The notes beneath the pieces were generated by a model. It saw nothing but the letters and a program-made list of their open reading frames with translations, was not told the origin of the DNA and made no database searches. A DNA stretch of 64,000 nucleotides. Source: Leucoraja ocellata. Taxonomy: Eukaryota. Position 1 is the first letter of the stretch. Each line of letters begins with the position of its first letter. Of this stretch, positions 603 to 58,411 are shown in pieces. The translations under genes were made by a program, and so were the position numbers. The stretch lies in assembly GCA_036785375.1 (NCBI GenBank), contig JAWMAR010000533.1, forward strand, positions 682,001 through 746,000. The letters run 5' to 3'.

Positions 603-730
603 GTAGACAAAAATGCTGGAGAAACTCAGCGGGTGAGGCAGCATCTATGGAGCGAAGGAAATAGGCAGCGTTTCGGGTCGAGACCCTTCTTCAGACGCAG
701 CGAAGGAAATAGACACCATTTCGGGTCTGG
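603..730 (-). mobile_element. Penelope-derived terminal repeat fragment with hammerhead-like motif
   Basis: Minus strand 696->664 reads GT CTGAAGA A GGGTC TC GACCC GAAA CGCT GCC, followed by TATTTCCTTCGCTCCATAGATGCTGCC..GCTGAGTTTCTCCAGCATTTTTGTCTAC. Confidence 0.75.
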
Positions 731-896
731 AATATTAAATTGCAAGGTTGTGTATACATTTGGTCTCCGGACTTTAAAAAAAGGAATGTACTTATTGAGG
801 GAGTCTATTTGGATCATGTGTGAATAATTTGAGTACACCAAGCTTCTATTCTCCAGAAATTAGAAGAATGAGAGATGGTCCTATTTAGTATAATTT

Positions 897-1315
897 AGTT
901 CAAGGTTTCAAGGTCAGTTTATTGTATCAATTAAGGTACAGTGAAACTCGAATTACCATACAGCCATACTAAAAGAATGCATCCGCGTCGGGGCGATCGA
1001 AGTTCCTCTGGCTTGGAGTTCCTGAAGTCGGTCTCTGACCAGAGACTGCAAGCTCCACGATGTTAAAGTCCGCAGGCTCCTGCGGTAGAGCTCATAGGTC
1101 AATCCCTGGCAAAGGGATCGCTGACTCCGTGATGTTAGGTCCGCAGGCACCCGCGGTGGAGCTCTCGGTCGGTCTCCAGCAAAGGTCGCCAACTCCTCGA
1201 TGTTAAGCCGCAGTGCGGATGGAGATACGATACATAAAACTAGCTAAAGAACACCAAAAACATAATTTAACACATACAAACAAACAACAAAAGAAGGAAG
1301 GGACAGACAGACTGT
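897..1315 (-). mobile_element. Non-autonomous retroposon with GC-rich internal repeats (same family as 33184-33910)
   Basis: Shares CAAGGT..CAGTTTATTG..CAATTAAGGTACAGTGAAA..TTACCATACAGCCATAC and the repeated CGATGTTAA/AG..CCGCAG units with 33184-33910. Confidence 0.8.
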
Positions 1316-1615
1316 TTGGAGATACAGCATGGAAACAAACCCTTCGGCCCACTGAATCCACGCCGACTGGTGATCTCCCCATACACTAGCACTATCCTAC
1401 ACACTAGGAACTATTTACAATTTTTACCAAAATCAATTAAGCTACAGACCTGTCTGCCTTTGGAGTGTGGGAGGAAACAGGTACACCCGGAGAAAACCCC
1501 CACGGTCATGGGGAGAATGCACACACTACGTACAGACAACACTAATAGTCAGGATCAAATCCGGGTCTCTGGCGCTGTAAGCATCTGTCTGTACTGCTGC
1601 ACCACCATACCACCC
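1315..1615 (-). mobile_element. V-SINE (HE1-like tRNA-derived SINE)
   Basis: tRNA-like head, V-domain (GTACGTAG..TTCTCCCCATGACCGTGGGGGTTTTCTCCGGGTG..CTCCCACACTCCAAAG) and CR1-like tail GGGCCGAAGGG..TTTCCATGCTGTATCTC. Confidence 0.85.
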
Positions 1616-1669
1616 TGACATTAACATATACAAAGCTCTTCCAGAGCTCAACAACATATGTAGATAAGA

Positions 1670-1990: not shown

Positions 1991-3031
1991 GCACTTTTAT
2001 GCGAACCTGAGTTTACTAACGTTTGGCTTGCCATTCACAATCTGTGCAATGCCTGATCTTTAGTTCAAATCATAGAGCTCCATTGAAGGATCATTCCTTC
2101 TCAAAGTCCCACCCCACCTCATTTTTCATTCCTCTATCTGAACCTCGTCTGAAACTCCTTTAATCAAGAACCTTATCCACAGGTTCTGTTACTTATTCAG
2201 CCATGGTTCCATAATTACCATAACATTGTTCTTCCAGAGAGACACAAACAACTGCAATTGCTGGAGTCTTGAGCAAATCATCAAGCAGGGTCTTGACCCA
2301 AAATGTCATCCATTCCTTCTCTCCAGAGATGCTGCCTGTCCCGCTGAGTTACTCCAGCATTTTGTTTCTATCTTCAGGGCTGGATGTTTGAATAAATTAA
2401 TTATATTGTGCCATAACCTCTCTCAATAAACCACAGTTATCTTCAGTGTAAACCAGCAACTGCAGTTCCTTCCTACCATTCTAGAGTAACTCAGTGGGAC
2501 AGGCAGCATCTGCAGAGAGAATGATTAGCTAACATTTTGGGCCAGGACCTGCTTCAAACGTGTTCATCAATGCTCTCATCACATCTGCCCTCTTTTCACT
2601 GTGCCCATTGAATTTAAGTATTGACCATTAAGCAATCTTTCTTTACAGATGTTCCCTGACCTACTGCTGGTAACAGACTGCTCTTTTAATTTCAGATTTC
2701 AGGTTACTTCAGCAACTGCTGGGTTCTGCATTTGACAGTTCTATCATGGACTGTTATTCCCTTTCTCTCTCTAACTGCTAGAACTCAGGGTAATTGTTAC
2801 CTGGAGAACTTTATTCTACATCTATCAAATACATTGCCTTTGTGCTCTCAGCATTCCCTTCACTGCAGCAGAAAGCACATTTGTTCTCTCATCTTTTGCT
2901 TCTGATACAGGGCTATTGTCCTGAATTGTTCACTGCTTCTCTCTCCGCACTTCCTGCATGGTCTGCTTTTAACACTTTTGGTTCCAGTTTCAGATTCCCA
3001 GCATTTACAGTATTTTGCTTTAGATTTGGAA

Positions 3032-3328: not shown

Positions 3329-4052
3329 TTTCCTAATTTTTCATTTCTTAATTTTTGCCTTCTCTGCCTTTCCAATTCTTGTAATTTTTTTTACCCATCA
3401 TTTCCAGTTCTATTTCTTTCAAACTTCATTGAGCTCCTCATCCACCTGTCTACCCAACACAGCATGTCCAGTAAATACACTCACAATGGCACTGTTTCTG
3501 ACCTTGTTGTGGTGTAACTCATGTGGCCCATACAGATCGCACCATCACTGGAAGAAATCACTTTGTTCCAGGAATCTGAAGCCATCCCTCCGGCATAGTT
3601 ACAGGATGAAGGTTTGGCCCTTTACATCCAAGCTGAGAAGAAACTATAGTTTATGCAAAGATTTGCTAAACTTTGCAAGGTTTTTTTTTACATAAGGCTT
3701 TTTTTTTACATTTTGGACCAAAGGAATAAGCAAATATGGAATTAAGGTGGCAAATAAATGACATGCGTAGTTGACTAACTCTAGTGTCTGCACAAATTAT
3801 TATTTCTTCTGGTGTCTGTTCATCCCATTATGCTTTCACTCAGCAGCATGGTGGCGCAGTGGTAGAGTTGCTGCCTTGCAGCGCCAGAGACCCGGGTTCG
3901 ATCCTCGATCCAAACTAGAATCCTAGCACAGCCCCACTGTTGGTAATGCAGAGAGCCAGGATGCTGGACTGATTGCAAACTGCTGGTAGTGGTGAGGAAT
4001 GAACAGGATATCATGGAACAATGGCACTGCTGATATTGCATCTGACTATACA

Positions 4053-4365
4053 TAGAGGGATCACAGTTTAAGAATAAGGGGTAGGCCATTTGGGACTGAG
4101 ATGAGGAAAAATGTTTTCACTTAGAGGGTTGTGAGTCTGTGGAATTCTCTGCCACAGAAGGCAGTGGGGGCCAATTCACTGGATGTTTTCAAGAGAGAGT
4201 TAGATTTAGCTCTTAGGGCTAACGGAATCAAGGGATTTGGGGAGTAAGCAGGAACGGGGTACTAATTTGGGATAGTCAGTCATGATCATATTTAATGGCA
4301 GTGCTGGCTCTAAAGGCCAACTGGCCTACTCCTGGACCTATTTCCTATTTTTCTATGTTTCTATG
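4053..4365 (+). mobile_element. CR1 3' end
   Basis: RGHSLRIRGRPF.TEMRKN.F..RVV.LWNSLP-type sequence plus UTR and (TTTCTATG) tail. Confidence 0.87.
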
Positions 4366-4879
4366 ATGCTTTATTGACCTCTTTCAGCTCTAATTCCATT
4401 GGCCCTCTCATTCCTGAGAACTTCTTATGCATTAACAAGGACCCAGTGAATAACCTTCCAATCCACTATTCAAATCAAATCACTCATCACTGGCTCCTTA
4501 TCTCTGAATCCTTTCACAAGTCAAACGACACTTTGGACTTCGATCTTGGTCGACCAATCAAAAATATTTAAGCATTCGGTTGAGCTTATTTAATTGAAAC
4601 TCTAAATTCCCTTTAACTACTAATGATTGGTATTATATTGCTTCTTCCATATTGCACTTTGATTAATTATGTCTTTTAATTGTCTTCAAGCACCATCAGT
4701 TAACTTTCAAACTATCTCTTAAATGATCAGCAAGCATTAATGATGATTTAGATGCAGACTATTTTATAGCAAGTTATTGAAAATGAATTCACAACAGAGG
4801 AATTTTATTGGTGTGGAAACAAATTAATTATTACTCAATTATCAATGCATTTAACAACTCCATTCCTAGGTTCCCATCT

Positions 4880-5490: not shown

Positions 5491-6212
5491 TGATATATCT
5501 ATCCATGCACTGTATACTTGTATTTATATTTATGCATTTTAAATATGTATGTTATATTTTATACTTTGGCAACATAACGATGTATTTTATCATGCCAATA
5601 ATTTTTTTTTAATTGAAAATTGAATTAAATTGATAAAACATCCTCCACAATAATGGAGGCCCTCTTCTCTCCCAGCTAACTTCAGCCTTTGTGCCCCGAG
5701 GTTGCCTCCGGCAGTCGAACATGAAGGCATATATTTTGAGAGGTTAAAAACCTTTTTAAGTCAATCCTGCTCCCAAGAGTGACAGTACACAAAGAATGAA
5801 TCAAAGCCAAATACTATGAAGGAAGTCATTAGATCCTGCAATCTCCCACAGAGGCAATCTCATTAATCCCATTCCAGTCTCATTCTCATTCTCCAAAGAA
5901 ACCGCATAGATTTTTGAAAGTTATGTTTTTCAAAAGTCGTCCACCCAGTCAATGAATTGGACGTTAATTAAATTACTTACGACGTGTGATAAATTCATTA
6001 TCATCTGTCATAATCAAATCACTCAAGCAAATCCTGCAACACAGGAATAATGAAAAAATATGGTATTGTGTTGGTTAAAGGAGATTCAGCTTGGCGATAT
6101 GGCATTTATTTGGACAAGAATAGAAGTGAAAAAGATCTTCAAGTGCAGCACGGTTGTGCAGCCTTACAGCGCTAGGGACCCGGGTTCAATTTTAACATCG
6201 GGTGCTGTCTGT

Positions 6213-8395: not shown

Positions 8396-8655
8396 TCAGA
8401 AAGGAACTGCAAATGCTGGTGTATACCGAAAGTGCTGGAGAAAAAACATGGGTGATGTTTCAGGTCGGGACCTCCTTCAGCCCATAATGGTCCATTGTTT
8501 GCTGCGGAAGATGTGATAATGAAAGGATACATGGATGCAAACAGTAGAACTAGTAGGAAGTCCATGGTGGAGAAGGGAGGAGCGATTGAATACAAGGGTT
8601 TCAAGAAATTAGAGAAATTAACCATTGGGTGGTAAGTTGCCCAAGCGAAATGTGA
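8396..8655 (-). mobile_element. Penelope-like 3' end (minus strand)
   Basis: Minus strand reads TTTCGCTTGGGCAACTTA...TTTCTCTAATTTC (FRLG.L..FSNF), with a degenerate hammerhead at about 8450-8482. Confidence 0.65.
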
Positions 8656-12614: not shown

Positions 12615-12746
12615 TTATGAATGGTGATTTCTCTAATTTCATAATAGCCCTTGCTTTCTTCCCCTTCAACCCCCACCCCCCCTTCCCAGTTCTCCTTCTA
12701 GTCCCACTGTCTCCACCTACTTTCAATCTTTTTCCTGCACCCCCCC

Positions 12747-12782
<36 letters not shown>

Positions 12783-12883
12783 CATCAGTCTGAAAAAGGG
12801 TTTTGACCAGAATCGTGACCCAATCCTTTCCTCCATAGATGCTGCCTCACCTGTTAAGTTACTCCAGCATTTTGTGTCTATCT
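12615..12883 (+). mobile_element. Penelope-like element 3' end (end of GIY-YIG ORF plus terminal repeat)
   Basis: ATGAATGGTGATTTCTCTAATTTC (MN.DFSNF, typical Penelope C-terminus), a pyrimidine-rich UTR, then a degenerate hammerhead at about 12788-12820. Confidence 0.7.
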
Positions 12884-13512
12884 TAAACTAAACTAATTAC
12901 TGTTTCAATTGTGGAAATAAATAATTTTCATGGAAGCAGAGTTCCTCCGTGTTCAAATTGCTAATGAGCTTCCATATGGCAACTGTTTCTATGTGAGAGA
13001 GATTTAACCATCTTGTCATGTTCAATATATGATGTTTACATATTTAGAAACAGCTTGAAGTAAGGTCCTTAATGCCAATGGCTATAACGTGATTAATTAA
13101 CGTGAAATTAGTTAGGTGAAATGTTAATTTTACAATCTTCAGTCAGTAATTATGCTAATCGCATTGAAAAGGTCACTGCATCCAGCTGGCATTCCCAATT
13201 TCTTTGCTTATCCCACACTATTTCAAAATTGTTTTTTTCTTTACCCAAATCTCCTGTGTGTTTTGTTGTAGCGGAGTTTAAAGCAAGGAGAGAAAAAAAA
13301 TGTAAAAAGGTTTTCATGAGGTTAGAAACCAAAAGAAAATTACAGATGCTGGAAAATCTGAAACAAAAATATTGAAAACCATAGGGACAATTTTAGCAAA
13401 ACAAATGGACTGCATTGTCAAAGAAGCTGGTTACTGTGTGCTACTATGCTTCAACCTGGAACATTGGCGGTAGTACTCAGAGCAGATGTGTTGATAATTG
13501 AAAAAGATAGAC

Positions 13513-13854
13513 AGTAACACTTGCATTCCCTCTCTCAATGCCCTTCCCCCACCATCATCGGCCTCCTAGTTTCGCTGTTTGCATCCATGTATCCCTTCGT
13601 TATTACCCTTTCCGCAGCCAACAATGGAACATTGTGGGCTCCACCTTTCCTTTCCTTTCGGTGCTAGCTCTGTTTTGTTCAGACCCTTTTCATACCTCTA
13701 GTTTCTCCATCCCCTGACCCTTCTGAAAAAGAGTCTCGACCCAAAACGTCACCTATTCCTGTTCTCCAGAGATGTTGCCCGACCCGTTGAGTTACTCCAG
13801 CATTTTGTGTCTATCTTCGGTGCAAACCAGCATCAGCAGTTCCTTCCTACACAT
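13513..13854 (+). mobile_element. Penelope-like 3' UTR/terminal repeat
   Basis: Pyrimidine-rich UTR, then CTGAAAAAGAGTCTCGACCCAAAACGTCACC (13723-13753) and the conserved GAGTTACTCCAGCATTTTGTGTC...GCAGTTCCTTCCTACACA end. Confidence 0.72.
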
Positions 13855-19637: not shown

Positions 19638-19946
19638 TGGCTCAGTGGTAGAGCTGCTGCATTACAGCGCCAGAGACCCAGGTTCGATCCTGACTATGGG
19701 TGCTGTCAGTATGGAGTTTGTCCATTCTCTCTGTGACCACGTAGGTTTCCTCTGGGTGCTCCGGTTTCCTCCCTCACACCAAAGATGTGCAGGTTTGTAG
19801 ATTAATTGGCCTCTGTAAATTGCCCCTAGTATGTAGGATGCAAAAATTGGATAACATGGAACTAGTGTGAACAGGTGATCGATGGTCGGCGTGGACTCTG
19901 TGGGGCCTGTTTCCACGATGTATCTCCAAACTAACCTAAGCTAAAC
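19638..19946 (+). mobile_element. V-SINE
   Basis: TGGCTCAGTGG A box, GGTTCGATCC B box, V-domain and tail. Confidence 0.88.
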
Positions 19947-20352
19947 TCACCGTGTCCAGCAATAACTGTAGAGGGAATGGAATGATGATTCTTTGGGTTG
20001 GGACCCATTTTCAGACTCAAAGTGGGGAGAAAAAGATCTCAAAACTCTTGTTGGCGAGAGAAGAAGAACGTCTTCAAAGTAGGCATACATTGAGGAGATT
20101 TCATAATGAAGCAGTAAAATTGAGACACATGTAACTGAAGATGTTAGAAACTTTAGCAAAACACAAAGTGCTGGAGGGACACAACGGGTCAGGTAGCATC
20201 TCTAGAGGCCTGAGGAAGGGTCACAATCTGAAACTTAGAAACATAGAAAATAGGAGCAGTAATAGATCAATGCTGATCATCTAAAATCAGTACCCCCTTC
20301 CTGCTTTTTACCCATATCCCATGATTCTGTTAGCCCTAAGAGCTAAATCTAA

Positions 20353-21990: not shown

Positions 21991-23577
21991 TACACTCATG
22001 AGGGTAATCAAAATCAGATCACTGATTATGATCATGGAAGGGTGGCAACAATCAAATGCTGGAATTTCAGAAGAAGCTGGATCCTTCTATGTGGAAGAAT
22101 GAGGAAAAATAATTGTATGTAGGAGGTGAGGTGTAATCTTCTTCTGAATGCTATCTGGTTGATGGGAAATGCCCATTCTCAAAGGCTCACCACAAAATAC
22201 GGGCTATCTGAGCTATACAGACTACAAGGCCAACATTTCAATCCCTAGTCTGAATCTTGAATTGAATTGATTGAATACTTTATTGTGACATGTCACAAGT
22301 CACAGTGAAATTCTTTGCTGGAATACCCAAGGTTTGCAAATAGTTGCCACGTAAAGGGCGCTGACAAAGTTACAACGTATCCCGTGCCAGGTCCTCCTTT
22401 GTTCTCCCCCCCCCCCCCCCCCCCCCACCCCACTCACAGTGGTTCCCCTTTGCTTTAGGTCCACCTTTGTTCACCTCCCCCCCCCCCCACCTCACGGCGG
22501 GCCATCCATTGTTCTACCCCCTTTGCAATTCTTTGCCATAGAAGGCTGTGGAGGCCGTCAAATGATATTTTTAAAGGCAGAGATAGATAGGACAATTGGA
22601 CATTTCTTCCAGTGATATAATAATAACTCTATTGATCAACTGACCCAGTTAGGAATGAAAACATTTGTTTTTATGTTCCATCTGTGTATTAATTAACAGC
22701 TGTATATAATCTCAAACATGTCAATAAATGTGCAAAATTACACACTCTTAGCTGATGCTTCTCAAAGTCAACTTTCATGGTCAAACAAATCGAGCAATTT
22801 AGAAACTTCAATGAGATATTGCTGCATCGTGCAACCCAGGGTGTGAAATTGTCATCGACAATGCATGAGATGAGGTTTAAATTGGTGGTAATTCTCCTCA
22901 TGGTACTCAACCCCAACAGTCATAGTCTCTGATCAATGCTAACAAGAGAATTGAAGAGGTCCTGCCTTGCACACCTTATGAAGAGATTGGAGGCAGCAAC
23001 ATTCACACATGACAGATAGAATTGCTGATTTAGTTTGAAGTAAAACCGAAATGTAATGTTATATTGATATAAACTAATTTCATTGTAAGGCTTGAATGAA
23101 GCTGCTTGAGAGCTTTAATTTTGTACTGACCACTTGTAATTGCAAATCCACAAATAGACAGATCATTTTTGGGAAACGATGAGATCAGCTTGTTGAAGTG
23201 GTTATTTATCAGATGAGTGCCTCATTAGGCTGGCAGCACAGCGTAGCAAAGCCAGCCTGGGTCAGGATGCTGGGAAGTGTTATAAATCGGAGAATGTTTC
23301 CAGTTAAGTGCATTGTGCTGTTCAGATGGGAGTTAAAGATTCACATCACTCTTAGGATGCCGAAATTTATATTTAAAAAAAAAGAATGTACTGGAAACAT
23401 TCAGTCGGTCAGACAGCACTTTAAGAAGAGAGAAACAGGTTTAACATTTCAGACCAATAACCCTTCAATAACCAACGGTCAATAGTCAATCGTGCTCTTA
23501 TTGTCACATATGTTAATTGTTAATTCAGTGAAATTAACTTTCTCAGAATTAGTCCAGAAGACTATCACCATACCCCA

Positions 23578-23752: not shown

Positions 23753-24234
23753 TCCCCAATTAGCAAGTGCACAGGAATAATCTACTGAGTTGCTTGCAGG
23801 AAACGCCATCTTTTGGGACCATGTTCAAAGTCCACGCTCTTGTTCTTATATGCGGTGCCTAAATCAGGCAAGTCCCAGCCTGTTGTGGGCCTCTGGCTAC
23901 CTCCTTCCTTGGACGCTACGTCCCACATCGTCAGAAATTGCCATTCCTTGACATTCCTTTACCTGTAATGTTACCTTTGTTTCCCTCACATTGCAAAATC
24001 TTAATTTGTGTGTACACAAAAATGCTGGAGAAACTCAGTGGGTGCAGCAGCATCTATGGAGCGAAGGAGATAGGCAACGTTTCGGGCTGAAACCCTTCTT
24101 CTTAATTTGTGTGTATTGAGATAATTCTTTGTTTGCCTGCCTTGGGTTGCTTGACAGCAGGTGACTAGCTGGAGAGATCTGGAGGAGTAAAATAAAGATG
24201 GCCATACCCAGACAAACAGCACACGTCTCCATTG

Positions 24235-24498: not shown

Positions 24499-24874
24499 TG
24501 ACATACATTCTCCCTGGCTTTCAACTTTTACACCTAAGAGCATTGTGAGAATGAAAGCTCAGAAGGGTCCTGATATGCAACATCGCCTATCCATTTTCAC
24601 CAGAGATGTTGCCTGACCTTGCTGAGTTACTCCAGCTCTGAACTTTTTTTGGGAAACCATCATCTGCAGTTCCTTTTGTACATGTATCCTTAATGGTCAA
24701 TTCCATTAAAACATATACATAGAGTTGCAATACAATTATGAAAATGCAATATAGCTTTCGAAACACTAAAAAGTGTAAATTCGAATCATGGCTTGTATTA
24801 AACATTCTCAGGTAAATGAGGGCTAGTTTGTGTAAATATATTCCATTATGGTTGGAAGTAAGGTCAGATTGATT

Positions 24875-24966
24875 GTCTGAAGAAGGGTTTCGACCCGAAA
24901 TGCCACCTATTCCTTTTCTCCAGAGACGCTGACTGACCCACTGAGTTACTCCAGCATTTTGTGTCT
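24875..24966 (+). mobile_element. Penelope-derived repeat starting with a hammerhead-like motif
   Basis: GT CTGAAGA A GGGTTTCGACCC GAAA TGCC ACC, then TATTCCTTTTCTCCAGAGACGCTG...GAGTTACTCCAGCATTTTGTGTCT. Confidence 0.75.
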
Positions 24967-35401: not shown

Positions 35402-36648
35402 AAAAGCCTATCTTCAGTTAGAATAAAGAAACACAATTGAACAGATCAATCAGAAAATCCATACGTTTATATTTTTATATATATTGCGAATCAATGTGTA
35501 TCTCGGAATCTGTTCAATCAAATAATTATTTTATTAAAGAATTATGAAGACAAATATCTTCATCCATTCCACCCGATCAATGTCAATGGAAGAAAAAGCC
35601 TGTGAACAAGGACTATGATAAGGGGATTGTTGAAAAGGATCTCTCACGATGATGAGTATTGGGATCTTTACAAGTTGCCTGAAGATTACAGTAGGATCAA
35701 TATCCAATCTCTGGGCAACAGTTTGGCTCTTGTGTGGGTTGGATACCAGCAAGTTATTTGTTTTCTGGAGGCATGTTATCTATTAGGTGTATTTTAGACA
35801 TTGTCATTAATGGCTAAAGTGGAGAGATTTGTATCCTTATGAGTTGAGGCCAGTATTTAGTGGGCAATGCTGATCTGAAGCCATTAATTCCACTTTTCAG
35901 TTCCAAAGTCCAACACAATTGAACTCAGTGAATGGAATAAAGGAAAGAGAAATCTCACATACACTATTTACCTATTGAAGTACTTTAGATTACTTTCTGC
36001 ATAATTGTGAATCCAGTTGTATCTGCCATTACACAGCTTCCTGTAGTTGGCCCCCACATTTAGCTATTTTTCAATATTTTACAACATTGATTCCGTTCAT
36101 AATGGATTGCCATCCTATCTTACAGCTGCAAAACACTATTCCTTTAAGAAGTGTGGTCTGTCTTTAAATGGTGCAAACCACGAGATTTAGGTCCCTTTGA
36201 TATTGAGTGAGTCAGTGAACAGCTTTCAGTTATGTGTGTCCCAGACCGAGCGATAAACCTGTCCTGTCATTGCCATGCCCGTTTTCAGGGGTTAACCTGA
36301 TTAATATTTTGGATCCTTCTGGCCCCACAGAACTACAATGGGTTGCTGACAGCTGTCCTTTCCCCTCTTTAAAGGCCCATCGCCGCTGAAAATACCACAG
36401 TCAGTCTGAAACCAAAGTGCTGGGAATGGGGGAACTACCAATGATATCTGCAATAGTTTGTCCATTTGACCTAAGATCCAATTTCAGATGATTCATTGCG
36501 TTTTGTCATTTAGTTGTAATTGCGCCAACCATTCTAAACCTGTTCAAATGTAAAAGTTTCGATGTCATGTCTGCTGAAAACATTGGCCATTTATGACCAA
36601 AACCTCCGCAGAACAAATAAAAACAGAATAATTCAGACGTGTAATAGT

Positions 36649-36872
36649 GTGTAAAAAGGATCTGCAGATGCTGGTTTACATTGAAGCTAGACACAAAATG
36701 CTGGAGTAACTCAGCAGTTCAGGCAGCATCTCTGGAGAAAAGGGATGGGTGAAGTATTGGGTCAAGACCGAGACACTTCATCTGAAGCCGGAATGTAACC
36801 TATTCCTTCTCTCCAGAGATGCTGCCAGTTCCGCTAAGTTACTCCAGCATTTTATGTCTATCTTCGGTGTAA
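36649..36872. repeat. Head-to-head inverted pair of Penelope terminal repeats (hairpin)
   Basis: 36676-36752 is the imperfect reverse complement of 36797-36872. Confidence 0.8.
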
Positions 36873-37843: not shown

Positions 37844-37976
37844 TGTGTAGGAAGGAACTGCAGATGTTGTTTACACCAAAGATAGATACAGAATGCTGGA
37901 GTAACTCAGCAGGTCAGGCAGCACCTCTGGAGAGAAGGAATAGGTGACATTTCAAATCGAGACCTTTCATCAGACA
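37844..37976 (-). mobile_element. Penelope-derived repeat with canonical CUGAUGA core
   Basis: Minus strand reads GT CTGATGA AAGGTCTCGATTT GAAA TGTC ACC. Confidence 0.7.
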
Positions 37977-45227: not shown

Positions 45228-45365
45228 GAAACAAGGAACTGAAGATGCTGATTACACAAAAGAACACAAAGTACTGGAATAACTCAGCAAGTCAGGCAGC
45301 ATCCCTGGGGTTCCATGTTCTCCAGAGATGCTGCCTGCCTTGCTGAGTTACTTCAGTACTTTGTG
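45228..45365. repeat. Head-to-head inverted pair of Penelope terminal repeats (hairpin)
   Basis: CACAAAGTACTGGAATAACTCAGCAAG.CAGGCAGCATC (45265-45303) pairs with GATGCTGCCTG.CTTGCTGAGTTACTTCAGTACTTTGTG (45327-45365). Confidence 0.8.
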
Positions 45366-45574
45366 GCATTTAAACTGAAGGATAGGAACTGCATAAAGTA
45401 GGAGGAAGATATGTTTACAACAAGTACCAGCACGAACAAGTTAGTCAAATACACAACTTCAGTGCTGTGAGTTTGGAGGCAAATTTCATTGCAGGTTTCA
45501 AAGCAAGACAATTTAATTGACTTTAGTTCGAGCTTTGCACACGGCTTTGTGACCATGCTTGGCAACAAGAAGGT

Positions 45575-46218: not shown

Positions 46219-46889
46219 TGTGGTGCTAGTGGCGCTAGGTGGTACTATTTCCAATGTAACTCTTGCAGGCACAGGCTTGCTCATCTTCTGACACCTGACA
46301 TCTCAGTGTCTGCTGTAGCTTAAGCAGCCACAAGCCAAAAATCTGTAGGGTGTTGTGGAAGTTTAGACTTCTAGCCAGCAAATCCTGCTTTGTGGCTCTA
46401 AATCCCAGTGTTCAAGGGCTTCATACAAATCATTTCATTCCAATAGTTTGGCATCAAATAGGTTGCAAGAAATGTCTGAGATTCTGTCCTAAGGGAACAG
46501 CAATGGGAATTTATGTTTGGCCTCACTGTGACTCACTAATGGAGGAGGCCCAGGACAGAAAGGTCAGTATGGGAATGGGAAGGGGAGTTAAAATATTTGT
46601 CATTCGGGAGATTGTATCGGACAAGGTGAACTGAGCATAAGTATAATGTGAACCATATCTCTTGTTGACATCATTTGCAGTACCTATCTAAATTGTATTA
46701 TTGCTCATCTGTCTCATATGGTTCAATAAACAGCATTTATTTTATTGAATCATGCTGATTATTTGATCTATGGCTGGGAATGAAACGAGCCAGAATCTGA
46801 TTTGAATGGATCAAAAGCAAATATTTCCACCATCAAGAATTATTAAAACTGTTTGACATATTGGGTTCAACATTCACTTTATAACAACA

Positions 46890-47543: not shown

Positions 47544-47577
47544 GGTCTGAGGAAGGGTCTCGACCCGAAAAGTCACC
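47544..47577 (+). ncRNA. Minimal type-I hammerhead ribozyme-like motif (degenerate core)
   Basis: GGT CTGAGGA A GGGTCTCGACCC GAAA A GTC ACC. Stem I is GGT/ACC, stem II is GGGTC/GACCC, and GUC is the putative cleavage triplet. Confidence 0.65.
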
Positions 47578-47744
47578 CATTCCTCCAGAGATGCTGCCTG
47601 TCCTGATGAGTTACTACAGCATTTTGTATCTATCTGCATAAAAATATGTTAGGTTGCTGACTTTCTTTAATTTAATTTTTTTATGTTGGATTATAAATAT
47701 TGATGTATAGTTCCCACAAATCATTGTACAAGATCAGGGACACC

Positions 47745-48660
47745 ACTGACAATGCCACCGCGGTTGGATGAATTATAGTTGACGATGAGTCAGATTTAAT
47801 GAGGGGGATCGATCGACTGACCAAATGGTGCCAGAACAACAACCTAGCTCTCAACGTCAGTAAAACCAAGGAAATGATGGTTGACTTTGGAAGAGGAAGG
47901 TCGAGGATCTACAAACCTGTATTCATCAATGGGACTGTGGTGGAGAGTGGAAAAACTTCAAATTCCTGGGCATGCATAGCTCTCAAGATCTGTCCTGAAC
48001 CCAGCACATTGATGCAATCAAACAGAAAGTCCATCAATGCTCGGCTTCCTAACTAGATTGAGGAGATCCGGTATTACAAATACGGAATTACGAATACGGT
48101 ATTATGAATAGAGTCTGAAGAAGGGTCTCAACCCGAAACGCTACCCATTCCTTATATCCGGAGGTGCTGCCTGTCCCTCTGAGTTACTCCAGCATTTTGT
48201 GTCTATCTTCAGTTTAAACCAGCAACTGTATTTCCTACCTACACATTACAAATACTCTCTTGAACTTCTACGGGTGCACAGTACAGAACATATTGACAGG
48301 TTCCATCACAGCCTGGTTCGGCTACTCGAATGACCAAGGATGAAGAAGATTGCAAAAAGTGGTGGACACTGCGCAGTTCATTGTGGGTACTGACCTCCCC
48401 GCCATCGCAAACATCTACACGAGTCCCTGCCTCACGAAATGTAGTCAGCATCATCAGAGACCCACACCACCCTGGCCACACTCTCTGTTACCTCCTGCCA
48501 ACACGAAGAAGGCATAAGAGCCTGAAAACTGTAACGTCCAGGTTCAAGAGCAGCTTCTTCCCTACAACCAGAGGGCTATTAAACAATACAACGTCTAAAT
48601 TTGCTCCATAGACCTGGGAGTATTGTTTTTTGTATTTGTACTATTATTTTTGTGTTTTGT
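47745..48660 (+). mobile_element. Degenerate Rex1-type LINE fragment interrupted by a Penelope-derived insert
   Basis: LTKWCQNNNLALNVSKTKEMMVDF (47799..48056) and IIRDPHHPGHTL..LLPTRRR..SRFKSSFFP (48330..48611). Confidence 0.85.
48112..48244 (+). mobile_element. Penelope-derived repeat with hammerhead-like motif, inserted in Rex1
   Basis: AGT CTGAAGA A GGGTCTCAACCC GAAA CGCT ACC...TTCCTACCTACACA, flanked by the direct repeat ATTACAAATAC (48073-48083, 48245-48255). Confidence 0.78.
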
Positions 48661-49489: not shown

Positions 49490-52289
49490 CATTTGATCTA
49501 TTCTTGTTTCTCATCTAGTTCCTAATAAATGTTAGCATTTTGTATCCTGCTGACGACCTCAGCTGTCTTGCCTATAATTCCCTGTGAGGGGTGAATTTGC
49601 AGTGGTTAGAAGGAGACTAAAGGCAGCCCTGTAACTGGTAGGTGGAAATAAACTTGGAGCAGGAAGGGTCCAACATTTCCGTGAAGGGTGCAGATAGACA
49701 ATCTCTCCCTACAAGAAAAATACACAAGGTTAAAAAAAAATAAACTTGTTTTTCTCCAGCCTTTCACTCATCCCTATATGTTTACATGAAGGTGTTAGTG
49801 GAAGTTATTTTTGTTTGGGGTAGAAAAGGGTGGGAAACCAATGGGTTAATCTGTTGCTCCATTTTATTTATCGCTGTGTTAAAATTTGCACAACTCTTTT
49901 ATATAAATTAAAATTTCTATCACTTAAGTTTAGTTAGAGGGATTTACTTCACGCAGCAAGACCGAACATTTTTAGGGCATGTATTTTATCAACCATTTGC
50001 TCTCAAAAACATAATTATGTAATATCTGAGGATGCTACAGGGAACAGTAGCTCACAAAATGGATCAGATGCATTGGAAAAGACTGAATACAAGGTGCAGG
50101 GTGAAGGATAAAGAGGAAATAATAGGGAGCTAAAAATAAAAGCTGGTTTAAAAAGAGAGCAGAGGTAGTGAGAGGCATATTCAAACATAAGCTTCAATCA
50201 ATTCACCTAATAAGATGAATAAATAATCTAATTTTATACAGATAGAGAACATAAAGAATTACAGGGGGGGGGGGGGAATTAACATTGGGACCACAATAAG
50301 GTGTAACAATTAAACTTGAATATCTGCACCTGACTCAATATTAACTAAATATGACCATAAGCAGTAATTGCATGGAATTACTACATGGAATCTCTTTTCA
50401 AAAATAAGTGGGTCTTCCGAAGTGCCAAAGCACAATAAAAGCTGAGTACCACATCAAATGACAGTGGAGGCCAATTCACTGGATGTTTTCAAGATAGTTA
50501 GATTTAGTTCTTAATGCTGAATCAAGGGATATGGTGAAAAAGCTGGAACGGGGTACTGATTTTGGATGTTCAGCCATGACCATATTGAATAGTGATACTG
50601 GCTCAAAAGGCTGAATGGCCTACTCCTGCACCTATTTTCTATGTTTCTATATTTCCATGAATAGGCTCTATGGCCCACAATGTTTGTGCTGAACATAATG
50701 CCAAGTTGCACTGATCTCATCTGCCTGATCCATATGATATGATCCATATCCCTCCATTTCCTCCACTTCCATGTGCCTTTCTAGAAGCCTCTTAAACGCC
50801 ACTATCATATTTGCCTCCACCACCACCTCTGGCAGCTTAGCAACCCTAATATGTACTGAAATTTCACTACTCCCATTTTTCCCCTTTTCATATTTAGCCA
50901 CAGAATAGTCTTAGTTTAATATATATTGATTCATCCACATTCTTGGTTTCCAAATTGACCTTTATGATTGTAACATAATAAGTGAAAATGTTAATTAATT
51001 TAATTCCCTTCAAAGTCATCATCATAATAATATTCTTAATTGATGGTATTATTGTGTTTTGGCACTGCTTGCTTTTGAAAATAAATCCACAGACAGCAAT
51101 TCCATTCAACCTGTGCTAAAAGTTATGTGTTTAGAGTTAAGTGTAAATATTCAGTAATATTTAGTTGTGACACCTAATTGTGGTCCCTATGTTGATTTTT
51201 ATTCTGTTGTTCGTCTTGTTAGATGAATGTATTGATTGAATCTGATGTTTGAATATGCATTTCACTAACTATGCTCTCTTTTTAAACCAGCTTTTAATGT
51301 AGGTTTGCTATTATCTATATTTGGTCTTTATCTTTCCCCTGTGCCTTGTATCTCACTGTCTTTTCAACTGCATCTAGTCCTGCATGTGAGCTACTGTTCC
51401 CTGTAGAATACTTGGATAATACTTAATTATGTTTATTGACAGTAAATGGGTGATTAAATATATACCTTAAAGATGTCCTCTCTTGTGGTTCTGAGTAAAT
51501 CTATTTAACTAACGTTAAGTCACAGAAAGTTTAATTTATGTAAAACAGTGGTGCAAATTTGACACAGCAATAGAATGAAGCAGAAGATTCATCCATTGGT
51601 TTCCTGCCCCTTTCCACCTTTCATCAAAAATAACTTTCACTAAATCTTCCATGAAGAGGTATAGGGATTAGAGAAAGCCTAACGGGAGACATATTTCTTT
51701 TTTGACATTATTATATTTTACTTGCAAAGGCAGGAATGCCAATCTGAGCTCTACAAGGAAACGTGGGACCCCAAGTGGCGGAGTAACTCAGTGGCTCAGA
51801 CAGCATTTCTGGAGAACATGGCAAGGTGACGTTTGGTTTCGGGAGAAGGGTCCTGAGATGATGTTTGACCCGCTGAGTTACTCCAACTTGTTGTATCTTG
51901 CTCCAGAGCTGCTGCCTGACCCACTGAGTTACTCTAGCAATTTGTGTCCTTTTATGTAAACCAGTCCCTTGTCCCGAGTTTACTTCCCATTACCAGGTAC
52001 AGGGTTGTCTTCAATCTCCTTCTAACCAATGCAAATGCATCCCTCGCAGCGAAATATACAACAAATTGTTAGATATAGCTCTTAGGACCAACGGAATTAA
52101 GGGATATGGGAATAAAGCAGGAACGAGGTACTGATTTTGGATGATCAGCCATGATCATATTGACTGGCTCAAAGGGCCGAATGGTCTACTCCTGCACCTG
52201 TTTTCTATGTTTCTATGTTTCTAATATCAGCAGGATAAAGAACGCAACAAATAATTAAGACGGAAATGAGGAACAGAATAGATTAAATG
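49490..52289. repeat. Long diverged inverted repeat (arms about 49490-50458 and 51030-52289), interrupted by younger TE insertions
   Basis: Perfect complementary anchors 50035-50056/51385-51406 (22 nt), 50137-50161/51272-51296 (25 nt) and 49603-49616/52015-52028 (14 nt), with collinear similarity between them. Confidence 0.92.
50461..50840. mobile_element. Two CR1 3' fragments inserted in the spacer of the long inverted repeat
   Basis: Plus copy 50461-50650 ends TTTTCTATGTTTCTA. Minus copy at about 50668-50840 (LPEVVVEA..AFKRLLERHM). Confidence 0.8.
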
Positions 52290-54271
52290 CCCAATCAAGC
52301 TGCTCCTTAATTCAAAGAGATGGAAATATAGTTATCAGGCATTTGGAAAATAATAATGTCCTTGAAAATAGTCAGTGATTGACAAAGGAGGGTGGATGAT
52401 AAACAATGGTTGGCTTCGAAGGATATTCTCACCAAAAAAACCATTGAGAAGTAAAAACTCACTAAGAAGGATGATCCATCCTTGCCCAACTGAAGATTGT
52501 GTCAAACTGAAAAGAAAAAGAAAAGGCATATGAAGTTGTGGGTTAATTGAAAGGTTAGAGGATTGGATAAAATGTACAAACCAGCTGAGGTTAACAAAAT
52601 CTCACAAAGAGAAAATCAAATTTGAAAATAATTTATGAAAATATATAAAAACACAAAAGAATTTACACAGGTGCTCAATAATGTCGAAGAGACCAAAAAT
52701 AAATATTAGTCTCTTAGGGGATGAGTCTCGAGCATCGATAATGGGAAAATAAGGAAATGGCAAAGAATTCGAACAAGGTTTTGGTTTTGCATTCCCAGAT
52801 GGGGAAGACACCAAAAGCCTCTCAATAACATTTGAAAACCAGAAGATGAAAAGATAAAACAAAAATTCTGGGCAGACAATACAATACTGTTTATTGTCAT
52901 TTGACCCTCAAATGAAGTTCAAACAAAATTTGGTTTCTGCAGTCATACATAAGAAAAAAAACCCAAGACACACAATTAACACAAACATCCATCACAGTGA
53001 ATCTCCTCCTCACTGTAATGGAAGACAAAGTCATTGTCTCTCCTCTGTTTTCCATTCTCCTCCCAACTAATGAGGATAAATGCTGACAAGTCTGCCAGAT
53101 ATGGTAACCTGCATCAGAGAACCTTAAAACAGTGGCAGCAGAGAGAGTGCTTGCATTGCTTTGGATTGCAAATTTCCCCACTCACCCAGCAGATTGGAAA
53201 ATTGCAAATATAATGCTCCCACTCAATAAAGCTGGAAGACAGAATGTAGGAAACTTTGGCCAGATAAACCATGCTCTAACATTGAGAAAACATCCCGATT
53301 CATTATTGAAGAAGTAGTGAAAAGACATTTAAAAAGTCAAAGCATGATCAAGCTGATCAAGGGAGGGGAAGGAGCATAAGCGAGCAGCTGGGAATGGTGA
53401 ATTATAACTGGGAAATGGAAAAATACTGGTTGGACCCCATTAGACAGTCAGCGACATGAAGTGAAGGGTGAAGATGGGGTTGCAGGAAATTGGGTAAAAC
53501 TTTGCTTCTGAAAATAGAGGATTGCCATCTGCAGTGTTCAGGCTGGCAGGTCAATGACAGGTAGTAATGATCTTATCTCTGGGATGGCAAAGGGAAGGTG
53601 AGAATGGTGTGGTGTGCAGGGCAAAGGATCAGTACACTTTAAATTGTTCCTCGTGTGAAGATGAGTGGTAGGATGGGAGGGGTGGGGGGGAAGAACATGG
53701 GTTAGGGTAGAGTTAATGTAAGAATGGCTGCTTGGTGGTCAGGGTGCACCCAGATGACCAAAGGACCTGCTTCTGTAGATTTATAACAAGAGCCTCATGT
53801 ATATTTGTGGCTAATACAGACATTGTCTAGCAGAGCAAATGTTCCACAATTTATTGGATAAGAAGTAAATGTTTGATAAACATTCACATAACTGCTGTTT
53901 GTCTCTTTTAACGTGTTATTTTAATTTATTGTTCTTTAAAGTTGTATTCCTGTCTTAATATGTGTTCCATTAGCTCAATATTAATCAGTAGAAAGATGCA
54001 GCATCAGAATGTTAATTCTGTGTAGGAAGGAACTGCAGATGGTGGTTTGAACTGAAGGTAGTCACAAAGAGCTAGAGTAACTCAGCAGGTCAGGCAGCAT
54101 CTCTGGAGAAAAGGAATAGGTGAGCACTTGTTCACATATCAGAAATGTCAACAGTGGTATGAGCTGTAAAGAACGGCCAGATCTCTTTCCAAGCAGATCC
54201 CAATCATGGAAAACAATGGAACCATTTATTGAGAAAGTGATAACAAGACACTTGGAAAATGATTGATTGAT

Positions 54272-54522
54272 TGATTGCTTGAAAGATACAGGGTGGAAGG
54301 AGGCCCAGTGTCACATCCACTCTCTACACACTCAGGGTTAATTTACAGAAGCCACTTAACCTGCAGCCACTTACATCTCTGTGACGTGAGAGGAAACCAG
54401 ATTGCCCAGAGGAAAACCCACACATGTAAACTCCACACAGACAGCACCCGAGGTCATGATCGAACCTGGGTCTCTGGCACTGTGAGGGAGCAGCTCTATC
54501 AGCTGTGTCACTGTGCTGCCCA
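54272..54522 (-). mobile_element. Older V-SINE
   Basis: AAACTCCACACAGACAGCACCCGAGGTC.GATCGAACCTGGGTCTCTGGC, with (GATT)n tail. Confidence 0.8.
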
Positions 54523-56234
54523 GGTACCAGTAATATGATTCATTGAAGATAAATTATATTTAACAAATCAGTCAGAATATTTTGAGATTGTCACTAGCAG
54601 AAAAGTATGGGTGATAGTACGGGTATCAGTGGTTCACAAAAAAGCTGGAGAAACTCAGCGGGTGCAGCAGCATCTATGGAGCAAAGGAAATAGGCAACGT
54701 TTCGGGGTATCAGGGGTTATTGGGAGGAGGCAGGAGAATGGGATAAGGAGGGAGAGATAGATCAGCCATGATAGAATGGCAGAGTAGACTGGATGGGCCT
54801 AATGACCTAAATTCTGCTCCTATCACTTAGGAACTTATGAACTTATGAAAAATTATTAATTCATTGATCTGGTTTATTTTAGGTCTGAAGGCCTTCAAGA
54901 ATATGCCAACAGAGACTATTCAGCAAAAGTAGAGCACATGATTTTGAAGGTCACGTACTACATGGTTTGAAAGTTGGTTAAAAGGGAACTGTGATGCAAG
55001 CAGTTAGATGTCTGTAATATGGGGTGCTGCAGTGCCGGGGTCCAAGCCACCTGCAAACTGTATCAGTCCTTTGGATGAGTGTGTCGTGCAATATATGAAA
55101 ATCAAATCAAATACTGCAGATGCTGAAAATCTAAAATGGGAGTAATATACCCAAGTTTGTGTAGAAAGGAACTGCAGATGCTGCTTTATATCGAAGATAG
55201 ACACAAAGTGCTGGCTAATATAACCAAGTTGCTTGTTATATAACAGCTGGCTGGCAGCATGAGCATTGAGGAGGGTTCACGGAGTCCTCAGGGGGATAGA
55301 GATCAGTTGTGGCAAGAACACGGCAGATGGAATAAATTGTGGAAAAAATGTTCTATCATCTACTGTCTTGGTTAAATAAGGAAGGAAGAGTACTGTTGTT
55401 TTAAATGATGAGAGGTTGGAAACAGATGGTATTCAGAATGCCTTGCCTTTCCCTGGATATATGTTGTGCTTAAGGCAAGTAATAAGGTAATTTTTAGATT
55501 CAAGTAACTGCAGAGGCTGGAATCTGGTGCTTAACACAAAGTGCTGCAGGAATTCAGTGGGTCTGGGGAAGGAATGGATAGGTGACTTTTCGGGTAGTCA
55601 TCTTACTTCATATTGATTGTAGAAGGAGGGAGAAAGTTGGAAAAGATAGGTAGGGTTGGGACAAAGCCTGGCAAGTGATAGATGGATGCAGGTGAGGGGA
55701 AATGTTTGGCAGATGGGTTGAGTAAGTGTCAAATGCTAGGGTTACAATAAACAATAGACAATTGGTGCAGGAGTAGGTCATTCGGCCCTTGACTCTGCTA
55801 TCTTTAAGAGCTCTATCTAACTCTCTCTTGAGAGTTAGTTGAAATGAAGAGATAAATTGAGAAATGGAGGAGTGAAATATAAAGCCAGTGGGATGGGCTA
55901 TACAGTGTACAGTGGCCTTTATTGTGTGATGATTTGTGTGCTAAACAAGAGATGTTTTGTTCCAATTATATAGGGCTCTGGTAAGACTGCATCCAGCATA
56001 TTGTATACAGATCTAGGGAAGGACATGCTTGCAATAAAGAGGATACAGCCATGTTTCCTCAGATTAATTCCTGAGATTGTGGCCTTGCTATTTTTTGAGG
56101 ATAAATTATAACCTGTACTGTCTTGCTATACTCGACTGCATTTAGCACTGAGATGAAATAATTTTCTTCATCAACAGGGCCATGCATCTTTGAAATTCAC
56201 TGTCTAAAAGGGCTGTGGAGCCAACTCAGTCATT

Positions 56235-56961
56235 ATATAGGCAGACCACAGGAGGCAGTCATACCCCCATCCATATAAACGGGACTGAGGTGGAGCGCGT
56301 CTCCAGCTATAAATTCCTCAGAGTACATATCTCGGAGGATTTGTCCTGGTCCCTCAACACCTCCAAGCTGATCAAAAAGGCACAGCAGCGCCTTTACTTC
56401 CTGAGGAGGCTCAAGAAAGCCCACCTGTCCCCCCGGATCCTGACCAACTTTTACCGCTGTACCATAGAGAGTATCCTGACCACCTGCTTCACGGTATGGT
56501 ACAGCAGCTGCACTGCTGCGGACAGGAAGGCACTGCAACGGGTGGTGAAAACCACGCAGCACATCATCGGTGCCCCGCTCCCTGCCATGGATGCCCTCCA
56601 CCGAAAACGGTGTCTGAGACGGGCTGGGAAGATCATCAAAGACCCCTCACACCCCAACCATGGACTGTTTGCCCTCCTCCCATCAGGGAGGCGGTACAGG
56701 AGCCTCAGGTCACGTACTAGTAGGATGAGGAACAGCTTCTACAACAATACAATCACATTGCTGAACTCGGAGTCCCGCCGATAGATTTCTCCGGTCCCTC
56801 CATCCCCATTGTTTAATTATTCTGTATTTTATGATTATTCTGTATCTTCTCTCTTTCTATTTTTTTTATTTCTTTATGCACAACTACTACGGACTGACGC
56901 AAAACTGCATTTCGTTGTACTCATACTTGTATTTGTGCGATGACATTAAAGTTGAATTGAA
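56235..56961 (+). mobile_element. Rex1-type LINE 3' fragment with 3' UTR
   Basis: ORF 56215..56784 ([50 protein letters not shown]). Tail ATTTCGTTGTAC...TGACATTAAA GTTGAATTGAA. Confidence 0.9.
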
Positions 56962-58335
56962 TATATTCACAACAGAGATCTATAAATGATAAATATTTTG
57001 GAAATCAAAAGATGTGTGGATAGAGCGGTTAATGGTGCTGGGGTAAAAGATCAGCAATGAACTTATTAAATGGTGGAGAAGGTAACAAGGGACTGATAAG
57101 CTTTCTACTGCCTCTACTTAATGTAATTTTTTGTCCTTAATTCCAGAAAGGAAAATCAAAAGTTATTTCTCAGTGAAGGGAAAGATATTGTTCCCAGTTT
57201 TTAAAAACCCCCCACCGTAGAATAAGAACATTTAAAACGCTCTGTTGGATTACAAGTTATGAAACATTTTCAACTAATGGCTTGAGGTGATTCATGTGAG
57301 AGCTATCACCACATACCATGAGCACTCTTCATGTATTAAATGCTTCTCTAATTTATTGGCCCTGTTAATAAATTCTAATCTGTCAGATACTGAGCAGTTT
57401 ACGTTCCATGCTGAGCAGTTGTTTGATCACCATTATAGATTGGCATGACCACCTTGTACCCATCATGAGCTAAGAAATATCACCCAAGAATTCATGCTTA
57501 CCTTCAATCACATGCATCTGCAAAAATACCAACAACTTACTTAAAATGATCCAGACCTACAATTGAAAATGTCTGACTAATTGACTTGTAAGAGAGATGT
57601 TGGTGCTTTGCATGCATCCGTTTTCACCTTTCCCCAATCAGCAGCAATGATCAGCAATGCTTTAGACTGTCAAAGACCTTAGCATGGAAATTCTCTGCCA
57701 TCGTCTCTCCAACTGGAGATCTGAAGGATGATTTTCACACAGAGGATGGAGGCTATCTTGAATGAGCTGCCAGAGGAGATAGTGGTGGAAGGCACAATTA
57801 CGATGTCTGAAAGGTGAAATGCCGGCTAATGGGATTAGTGTCAAGAGGCATCACAGTTGGCAAAGACAAGCTGGTCCATTTCCTTGCTGAATGATTCTGA
57901 TTCTATGATACCACACTCTCTTCCTTAATGTGCTGGAGCTATAGAGTTATACAGCACAGAAACAGGCCCCTTGACCCAATTTGTCTATGCTGATGAAGTT
58001 GCTTTCCTGGTCCCATTTGCCTGCATTTGGCCCAAATGCCTCTAAACATTTTCTATTTAATTATTTTAATCAGGGTTTATACTGTATCTAAACCTGTCCA
58101 AATATATTTAAAACATATTTAAACATTACTATTTAAAACCTAACCATATGATCCCATGTTAGTGCATGTGTCCTAATTTTGTATCATGGCTCAGAGTGCA
58201 ATTCTGTTTGATAACTGTTTCTGAGAAGAAGCTCAGATTATGAGGAAACAAAGAACTGCAGATGCTGGTTAATACACTAAATGACACAAAGTGCTGGAGT
58301 AACTTAGCAGGTAGACAAAAAATGTTGGAGAAACA

Positions 58336-58411
58336 GCGGATGCAATAGATGAGGTTGGAGGAAGTGCAGGTGAACCTCTGCCGCACCTGGAAAGACTGCT
58401 TGGGTCCTTGG
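58336..58411 (-). pseudogene. Penelope GIY-YIG endonuclease fragment
   Basis: QGPKQSFQVRQRFTCTSSNLIYCIRC (CxSxNxIYxIxC, the start of the Penelope GIY-YIG domain), joined to the same terminal repeat (58243-58335). Confidence 0.8.

Follow-up and report, generated by a model that had tools for sequence, protein, structure and literature searches.

Minimal hammerhead ribozymes in the pseudo-long terminal repeats (pLTRs) of Penelope-like elements (PLEs) have been described since 2014, and the reported motifs mostly lie scattered as singletons, 'probably related to truncated PLEs' (Cervera and De la Pena 2014, PMC4209133). As dimers, published minimal hammerheads of PLEs show weak cleavage (PMC4209133; the dimer cleavage work of Lunse, Weinberg and Breaker is covered in the review PMC6765202), and the hammerhead of Poseidon from Anolis needs the protein of the element in order to cleave (PMC11167929). 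The pLTR contains the PLE promoters (PMC2377424, PMC3846280). Here we analyzed short hammerhead-bearing repeats in a 64,000-nucleotide stretch of the Leucoraja ocellata genome (contig JAWMAR010000533.1, positions 682,001 to 746,000; hereafter the window) and elsewhere in the assembly. An earlier note on the window had assigned them to a Penelope-derived, ribozyme-bounded family resembling retrozymes or short interspersed elements (SINEs). As a family the repeat is ordinary, being a case of minimal hammerheads in PLE terminal repeats with scattered truncated copies; its copy load is extreme, and many of its copies share a 5' end hot spot that is not the ribozyme cut site.

Throughout, position 0 is C3 (the C of CUGA) and the predicted cleavage lies between +27 and +28. 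A search profile built from seven natural long copies found 29 pLTR fragments in the window at a cut-off of E<=0.01, an earlier profile having given a similar list. Elsewhere in the genome it found 295 matches in 699,600 bases (70 stretches, each of 10 kb, taken at round-number coordinates of contigs C1-C280), against none in the reversed-sequence control. The repeat makes up about 3.8% of the sampled DNA, and extrapolation gives about 1.45 million copies genome-wide (95% bootstrap 1.16-1.76 million), in line with the very high copy number proposed earlier; these counts may be inflated, because the assembly may hold duplicated haplotypes. Three same-contig pairs of loci (L003/L004, L011/L012 and L026/L027), 97-99% identical across 3 kb, appear to be either segmental duplicates or retained haplotypes. 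The perfect 31-nt hammerhead core alone, a single variant, occurred 15,546 times in the genome and not once in the control, compared with about 4,000-9,000 motifs in coelacanth and Xenopus (PMC4209133). We saw no cartilaginous fish among the motif hosts of that paper. A literature search, with Repbase, Dfam and subscription journals outside its scope, found no paper on this repeat family or on the strong-stop model discussed below; the supplements of PMC4209133 and of bioRxiv 10.64898/2026.07.22.740005 may list cartilaginous-fish motifs, and the family may already be catalogued in Repbase or Dfam.

The motif agrees with the minimal hammerheads of metazoan PLE pLTRs (PMC4209133) in its CUGANGA and GAAA boxes, the extra nucleotide before stem II, the G10.1-C11.1 pair, the palindromic 15.2-16.2 segment and the lack of stem III. 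The commonest letters per column in 106 in-register copies were CUGAAGA, GAAA, ACGU and CGU(C/U); the boxes, the ACGU and the GUC/GUU triplet read earlier from the window are those of the consensus, and the CUGANGA, GAAA and NUH core with its palindrome is also that of the 15,546 exact occurrences. Both stems were shorter than had been proposed. Stem II, taken for a perfect GGGUC/GACCC helix, is 4 bp long (GGGU/ACCC) with a CUCG or UUCG tetraloop, whereas the S. mansoni families have 7-8 bp (PMC4209133); it cannot have a fifth pair because the loop would shrink to an impossible 2 nt. Stem I, given as GGU/ACC, has 2 bp (GU/AC), as in D. virilis (PMC4209133); position -3/+30 is an A.C mismatch in 66 of the 106 copies, and the third pair of the GGU form is private to the copy at 47545. 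Two-sided stem covariation, one of the checks attached to the earlier note, was not found among the 106 copies, although the core itself was there; the changes were one-sided, from U-A to U.G (U11.G16 in 18 and U-1.G28 in 30 copies). Other subfamily variation affected the loop, H17 or sequence beyond the motif, with frequent non-CpG variants at tolerant positions. Such one-sided variation is compatible with constraint and does not amount to covariation. Two matches, both of one sequence, were found for a CUGAUGA/GUYGAC variant that would be older and have a longer stem I; they were uninformative on covariation.

Core and stem II were both intact in 21 of 124 anchored copies (about 17%) and in none of the eight window copies that passed the anchoring filter. 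An Rfam scan of the window (E<=5) matched no hammerhead family, as expected of a motif without stem III, and gave weak miRNA-type hairpins, all below the gathering score. For a natural 48-nt copy the hammerhead-shaped fold was predicted at -3.9 kcal/mol against a minimum of -10.1 kcal/mol, and for a double hammerhead in a dimer at -6.1 against -23.9 kcal/mol; in the predicted minimum fold the core pairs with a downstream pyrimidine run. Ribozyme activity is plausible in the parent RNA and unlikely in isolated genomic copies. In the parent RNA the hammerhead probably works as a ribozyme that depends on a dimer or on protein, and it is probably inert in most copies that stand alone.

The parent element itself was found in the assembly. 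A protein search with one pLTR-linked frame gave 150 scored matches among 195,075 candidates, and ten long open frames were examined. One locus, L071 (G000:C175, minus strand), is complete, with a pLTR, an open reading frame (ORF) and a second pLTR. Its pLTRs are identical from -26 to +94 and spaced 3,973 bp. The stop-to-stop frame of 1,254 aa (1,230 aa from the first in-frame ATG at +164) contains YIDD and IYIGET..R..EH and matches RVT_1 (E 1.9e-6) and GIY-YIG (E 0.013), both below the Pfam cut-offs. Its linker, CGRRRCNTC (Cx4Cx2C), fits the Cx2-5CxxC zinc knuckle between reverse transcriptase (RT) and endonuclease (EN) that is typical of Neptune and Nematis (Craig et al. 2021, PMC8557442). 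The 3' pLTR ends at +94, and only the 5'-type pLTR runs on into a tail, toward the ORF. A second near-intact element, L072 (G000:C1146:1-8000), is a partial tandem that runs off the contig start; its protein is nearly identical to that of L071, suggesting that this subfamily was recently active. The features of EN-containing (EN+) PLEs are thus present: a single ORF with RT and C-terminal GIY-YIG (L071), pseudo-LTRs in partial tandem arrangement (L071 and L072), an optional 30-40 bp 3' tail from the pLTR-ORF junction, seen as bimodal 3' ends, and inverted 5'-truncated copies adjoining the 5' end. Three minus-strand fragments of the window match the L071 ORF: 20056-20099 its start, 46539-46679 the EN end of its protein, and 58333-58410 its zinc-knuckle/GIY-YIG start (residues 1139-1164, 92% identity over 26 aa). 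Because of the structure of L071 and these matches, the repeat is very probably the pLTR of an autonomous PLE; the Penelope origin and the minimal type-I hammerhead recognized earlier agree with the pLTR identity of L071 and with the column counts.

As in the Neptune EN+ PLEs (PMC8557442), the element combines RT, a Cx2-5CxxC linker and a GIY-YIG domain at the C terminus, and shows partial tandems, inverted 5'-truncated copies, an optional 30-40 bp tail and strong 5' truncation. Unlike them it has a long proline-rich N-terminal region within its 1,230 aa, and its 5' truncation clusters at a single 4-nt hot spot; we saw none described for Neptune in PMC8557442. Judged by the linker motif, the parent element may be Neptune-type. 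With the Poseidon element PAc of Anolis carolinensis (PMC11167929) it shares two 3' ends that bracket the tail at the pLTR-ORF junction and templates that appear uncleaved by the hammerhead. In PAc, however, the ORF starts inside the hammerhead and priming lies 111-118 nt into the ORF (PMC11167929), whereas here the core is CUGAAGA, with no AUG, and both 3' ends are upstream of the first in-frame ATG (+164).

The short copies, 95-135 bp long, had bimodal 3' ends: among 149 copies with a score >=60, a filter that favours long copies, 74 ended at profile columns 86-108 and 69 at columns 123-134, leaving five at columns 109-122 and one shorter. These two ends lie near +94 and +130 from C3, and the longer one is the sequence that follows the 5' pLTR of L071. 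In the work of Frangieh et al. (PMC11167929) a PLE tail was traced to two internal RT start sites. Target-site duplications (TSDs) of 10-19 bp flanked 23 of the 314 candidates and, as a control, 2 of 626 mismatched (shuffled) pairs, in a search limited to 5' ends from -10 to +3 that included 60 loci chosen for an AGT prefix; two of the 23 look element-derived. The 5' junction of the TSD-mapped copies lay at -4 to +3 in 18 of 23, and the 3' junction at +86 to +95 in 14 and at +128 to +134 in five. Since TSDs flank short copies, some of these at least are primary insertions and not remnants.

The 144 sample copies anchored at C3 comprised 39 upstream-extended copies, which share sequence there, 37 inversion arms (both arms of one pair may count), 60 solo copies and 8 ambiguous ones; head-to-head neighbours numbered 57. 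Of the 60 solo copies 21 had the tail, as did 12 of the 37 inverted and 13 of the 39 extended ones, and so similar a share across classes is as expected of one priming step. At 30 perfect-core loci, many copies, from several subfamilies, continued upstream into a pyrimidine-rich untranslated region (UTR) and a GIY-YIG frame; others had a head-to-head inverted copy centred between GT and CUGA, and others ended <=15 nt upstream. Solo, inverted and extended copies were intermixed on a weakly resolved tree of 78 copies (score >=75, 91 columns), where the solo label needed 22 changes compared with 23.0 when shuffled, and two solo copies were identical to one extended copy. At this low resolution the short copies appear to form no lineage of their own.

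The 5' ends of the copies are concentrated just upstream of the hammerhead. Exact counts fell from 15,546 for the core to 11,534 with GT added and to 6,695 with CAGT added, that is, 43% were retained over 4 nt, whereas internal 4-mers were retained in 54-64 of 76 perfect-core copies (71-84%). Because the exact counts fall there, we estimate that about 45% of young copies end within 4 nt upstream of CUGA; this is a lower bound, because perfect fold-backs recreate CAGT. The non-random 5' ends proposed earlier, including five window copies that begin 2-3 nt upstream of CUGA, are borne out. Templated letters at -1 to -5 were kept in 45, 35, 30, 21 and 25 of the 60 solo copies and in 35, 37, 35, 34 and 36 of the 39 extended ones, which end anywhere from -28 to beyond -700. 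At the hot spot the word TCAGT is conserved across subfamilies and the sequence farther upstream differs by subfamily; only the last two bases of TCAGT are needed for stem I. At many junctions the leading 10-30 nt recur as short repeats or as fold-backs.

In a type-I hammerhead the cut follows GUC, and the 3' product starts at +28, without the core. Copies defined by cleavage would be without the CUGA...GAAA core, since the cut lies 28 nt downstream of C3. The cleavage site is about 30 nt downstream of the hot spot, and 2 of 263 copies with a 3' anchor started at columns 29-33, a count that omits eight tandem units of the locus L081. The hot spot is not the ribozyme cut site, and by the genomic evidence cleaved RNA is not the template for insertions. 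The near-absence of cleavage-site starts agrees with the results of Frangieh et al. (PMC11167929), in which hammerhead mutants inserted normally and no RNA-seq ends were reported at the cut.

We consider it fairly likely that run-off from a start site at TCAGT, without ribozyme cleavage, produces the hot spot. TCAGT fits what we take to be the initiator consensus, TCA(+1)GT, and the mRNA would start at A(-3) of this initiator-like word, just upstream of the uncleaved hammerhead motif. By inference from Anolis Poseidon (PMC11167929), the GIY-YIG domain would nick the DNA and RT would prime at two internal sites; priming at +94 or +130 would yield a cDNA of 100-135 nt before the template runs out. 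From the RNA 5' end the cDNA end could join the target, leaving a solo copy, or fold back, leaving a head-to-head copy, and a cDNA that continued upstream, whether on a read-through template or after jumping to the 3' pLTR, would give an ORF-linked copy. A cDNA that runs out of template would explain the solo copies, the fold-backs and the short head duplicates alike. The extension of this scheme to a strong-stop cDNA as in retroviruses, with priming about 95-130 nt from the cap, run-off at the stem-I initiator and a jump to the 3' pLTR for the ORF, is tentative, and we think it rather doubtful.

Several observations weigh against run-off from TCAGT. Support from a copied cap for a start at A(-3) is weak: GAGT was counted 837 times and AAGT 723 times, a ratio of 1.16 against 0.94 for background trinucleotides (p 6e-5), and untemplated bases ending in G preceded A(-3) in 3 of 23 TSD-mapped copies. 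An apparent 7/8 excess of cap G, noted by eye in 100 rows, had shrunk to those genome-wide counts. The 5' ends spread over several nucleotides instead of one, and the 5' pLTR of L071 itself begins at -26, upstream of the proposed start. Three RNA-seq runs, chosen by the species label of the records with the best matches and with one contig set added, had no read-end pile-up within the pLTR, in libraries that cannot show caps or 5'-OH ends. In RNA the repeat lay mostly inside other transcripts, 52-97% of raw reads continuing into unlike sequence, and none of the listed records that contain the repeat was RNA. The bounds of the TSD search and the two element-derived duplications, the weak resolution of the tree and the dependence of the clade on the linker motif count on the same side.

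The best surviving alternative, which we regard as unlikely, keeps the same parent and priming but has RT stall or release at the hot spot on read-through RNA and join the target via AG microhomology. The stall could be due to a GAAGAAGGG/CCUUCU helix, a bound protein or an upstream C-rich tract. Ends spread from -4 to +3, five TSDs that end in AG or AGT common to the element, the predicted pairing of the core with the downstream pyrimidine run, the small cap-G excess and the lack of an RNA end in the RNA-seq runs, which were not 5'-end libraries, are all as stalling would have them. What tells against stalling is that TCAGT conservation begins exactly at the hot spot, across subfamilies of differing upstream sequence, and that the junction repeats and fold-backs fit an RT that is out of template.

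Far less probable is that the pyrimidine tract and CAG are a 3' splice site and the hot spot a product of splicing-related template processing. Transcription of D. virilis Penelope starts 46 nt upstream of a 75-nt intron, and this intron ends at the hammerhead 5' edge (PMC2377424, PMC4209133), at the 5' end of helix I (PMC4209133). In the extended copies here a Y-rich tract and CTGAC/CTAAC occur, and CAG immediately precedes T(-1); by this analogy the conserved YAG could instead act as a splice acceptor, a further point against run-off. Splicing joins an upstream exon, yet the 60 solo copies have no common upstream sequence, and many of them keep A(-3) and G(-2), intronic bases on this reading; among the RNA joints listed (142 and 243 further joints being outside the list), no GT..AG joint ended at the hot spot.

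Run-off from TCAGT was also set against the proposal of the earlier note, in the form of a SINE-like retrozyme family that is independent and non-autonomous, its RNA being excised by the hammerhead and then mobilised in trans. Its appeal is in the roughly 1.45 million copies, mostly without an ORF, the TSD-flanked short insertions, the 21 of 124 copies with core and stem II intact, and the PLE-derived retrozymes reported in one chondrichthyan genome (bioRxiv 10.64898/2026.07.22.740005). Animal non-LTR retrozymes likewise have a type-I hammerhead, PLE ancestry and non-coding short copies; they form tandem units of 150-450 bp with mostly canonical hammerheads and circular RNAs (PMC7229834; Li et al. 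bioRxiv 2026), whereas the copies here lie scattered, alone or head-to-head, and have a minimal motif right at their 5' edge. The proposal is largely refuted and the least probable of all, since cleavage removes the core from the 5' end of a copy and almost none start there, no arrays of whole hammerhead units were found in the 0.7 Mb sample (seven isolated same-strand pairs among the 295 matches; rare arrays elsewhere are possible), ARAGORN called no tRNA at any copy, against a Pol III RNA-derived head, no poly-A tail was present, no solo or master lineage emerged on the low-resolution tree, the short-copy sequence is wholly pLTR and the parent's tail, and the hammerhead fold is far above minimum energy as monomer and dimer.

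Two structures were seen beside these results. At L081 (391-662 and 1447-1711) a tandem array has a 66-nt unit made of pLTR sequence that starts with GAAAC and lacks the CUGA half, and junctions of such units were matched in the RNA run X24; the array appears to be a satellite born from the pLTR, not a working retrozyme. A AGAUGCUG/CAGCAUCU stem pairs pLTR +43..+51 with tail +105..+113 (L011, L023, L025, L028, L029 and L071). It forms only in tail-containing RNA and was found in 5 of 6 long copies; the +94 end falls inside it and the +130 end after it, and it is a candidate RT-recognition stem-loop.

Nearly all of the copies listed in the earlier note were recovered by the profile, at 587-696, 8435-8480, 19943-20016, 24012-24101, 37844-37975 and 55503-55610 on the minus strand and at 12788, 13722, 24875, 47545 and 48113. 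The copy at 27727 is marginal, having been reached by the earlier profile at E 0.17 and being absent from the later E<=0.01 list. Matches to CTGA.GA...GAAA at 16169 and 17956(-) were dropped, stem II being unpaired by eye. The copy at 587..696 (-) starts 2 nt upstream of CUGA, with a short duplicate of its head, in direct orientation, before it (703-728). Solo copies lie at 24010..24101 (-), with a 15-bp TSD and a 5' junction 3 nt within the CUGA box; at 24875..24966 (+), beginning at -2 and with a short 3' end; and at 47545..47637 (+), also with a short 3' end. Long-tailed solo copies lie at 37844..37975 (-), a CUGAUGA variant, and at 48112..48245 (+), which begins at A(-3).

Coding remnants adjoin other copies. 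The copies at 8.4 kb and 12.8 kb follow ORF-end sequence, as had been described: 8401..8655 (-) has a PLE ORF end and 3' UTR (8484-8655) followed by a degenerate hammerhead head and tail with an internal deletion, and 12616..12890 (+) is a 5'-truncated PLE with ORF end, pyrimidine-rich UTR, broken-core pLTR and short 3' end. The 13722 copy, which is not solo, is preceded by the same 3'-UTR-like sequence as the 8.4 kb copy and belongs to an older-subfamily 5'-truncated PLE with UTR and long-tailed pLTR (13530..13853, +). A composite at 19943..20234 (-), likely an internally deleted old element, consists in order of an inverted hammerhead stub (20207-20234, +), a pLTR 3' half, a tail, an ORF start with ATG (20056-20099) and a second degenerate pLTR (19943-20016); the supposed copy at 20209 is this stub, 28 bp long, with no cleavage triplet and attached to the minus-strand copy. 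A C-terminal GIY-YIG fragment of the PLE ORF at 46508..46679 (-) has no adjoining pLTR. At 58250..58410 (-) the zinc-knuckle/GIY-YIG fragment (58333-58410) is fused to pLTR 3'-end pieces and tail; the GIY-YIG fragment noticed earlier is real, but the repeat next to it (58250-58334) is a 3' half with no hammerhead.

Inverted arrangements comprise a tail-to-tail degenerate pLTR pair at 2283..2558 (2283-2376 +, tail piece 2437-2475 +, 2478-2558 -), a head-to-head pair centred on the hammerhead 5' edge at 36648..36872, head-to-head pLTR 3' halves without hammerhead at 45233..45368, from which the spurious Rfam miRNA-hairpin matches originate, and inverted and tandem fragments, none with a whole hammerhead, at 51767..51964. 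The other copies are a degenerate old fragment at 23389..23466 (-; profile E 4e-4), a degenerate tailed copy at 24561..24675 (+), a long-tailed copy that starts near the cleavage site (profile column 29) at 54019..54123 (-), a fragment starting within stem II at 54627..54706 (-), a pLTR 3' end and tail alone at 55158..55214 (-), and a degenerate old copy with pyrimidine-rich sequence upstream at 55503..55610 (-).

Other elements also occupy the window. A broken retrotransposon at 15239-18800 (-), which we take to be DIRS-like, has frames resembling a tyrosine recombinase (weak Phage_int_SAM_1, E 0.013) and RT. Fragments of long interspersed elements (LINEs) at 40269-42122 (-) and 56194-56784 (+) include a 406-aa frame with RVT_1 (E 1.5e-28) and a C-terminal piece matching ALKBH8_N. 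An abundant SINE family with a tRNA-like head and a LINE-type 3' end (3043, 3852, 12310, 19638, 31648, 37423, 62283 and 46052-46126) corresponds to repeat families D5, D7 and D12-D18, with one tRNA-Ala call; such SINEs are presumably typical of sharks and rays. A 79-bp inverted repeat at 14486-14791 (I24), 96% complementary with arms 148 nt apart, is a possible miniature inverted-repeat transposable element (MITE).

The copy load, about 1.45 million copies and perhaps inflated by duplicated haplotypes, is the extreme feature of this family. If the strong-stop scheme were true, about 1 million TSD-type stubs and fold-backs (about 4% of the genome) would be fossil failed jumps, and the origin of pLTRs and partial tandems would be explained. 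Together, the hot spot and a natural intact copy make testable both the origin of pLTRs and partial tandems and the role of the ribozyme in PLE mobilisation.

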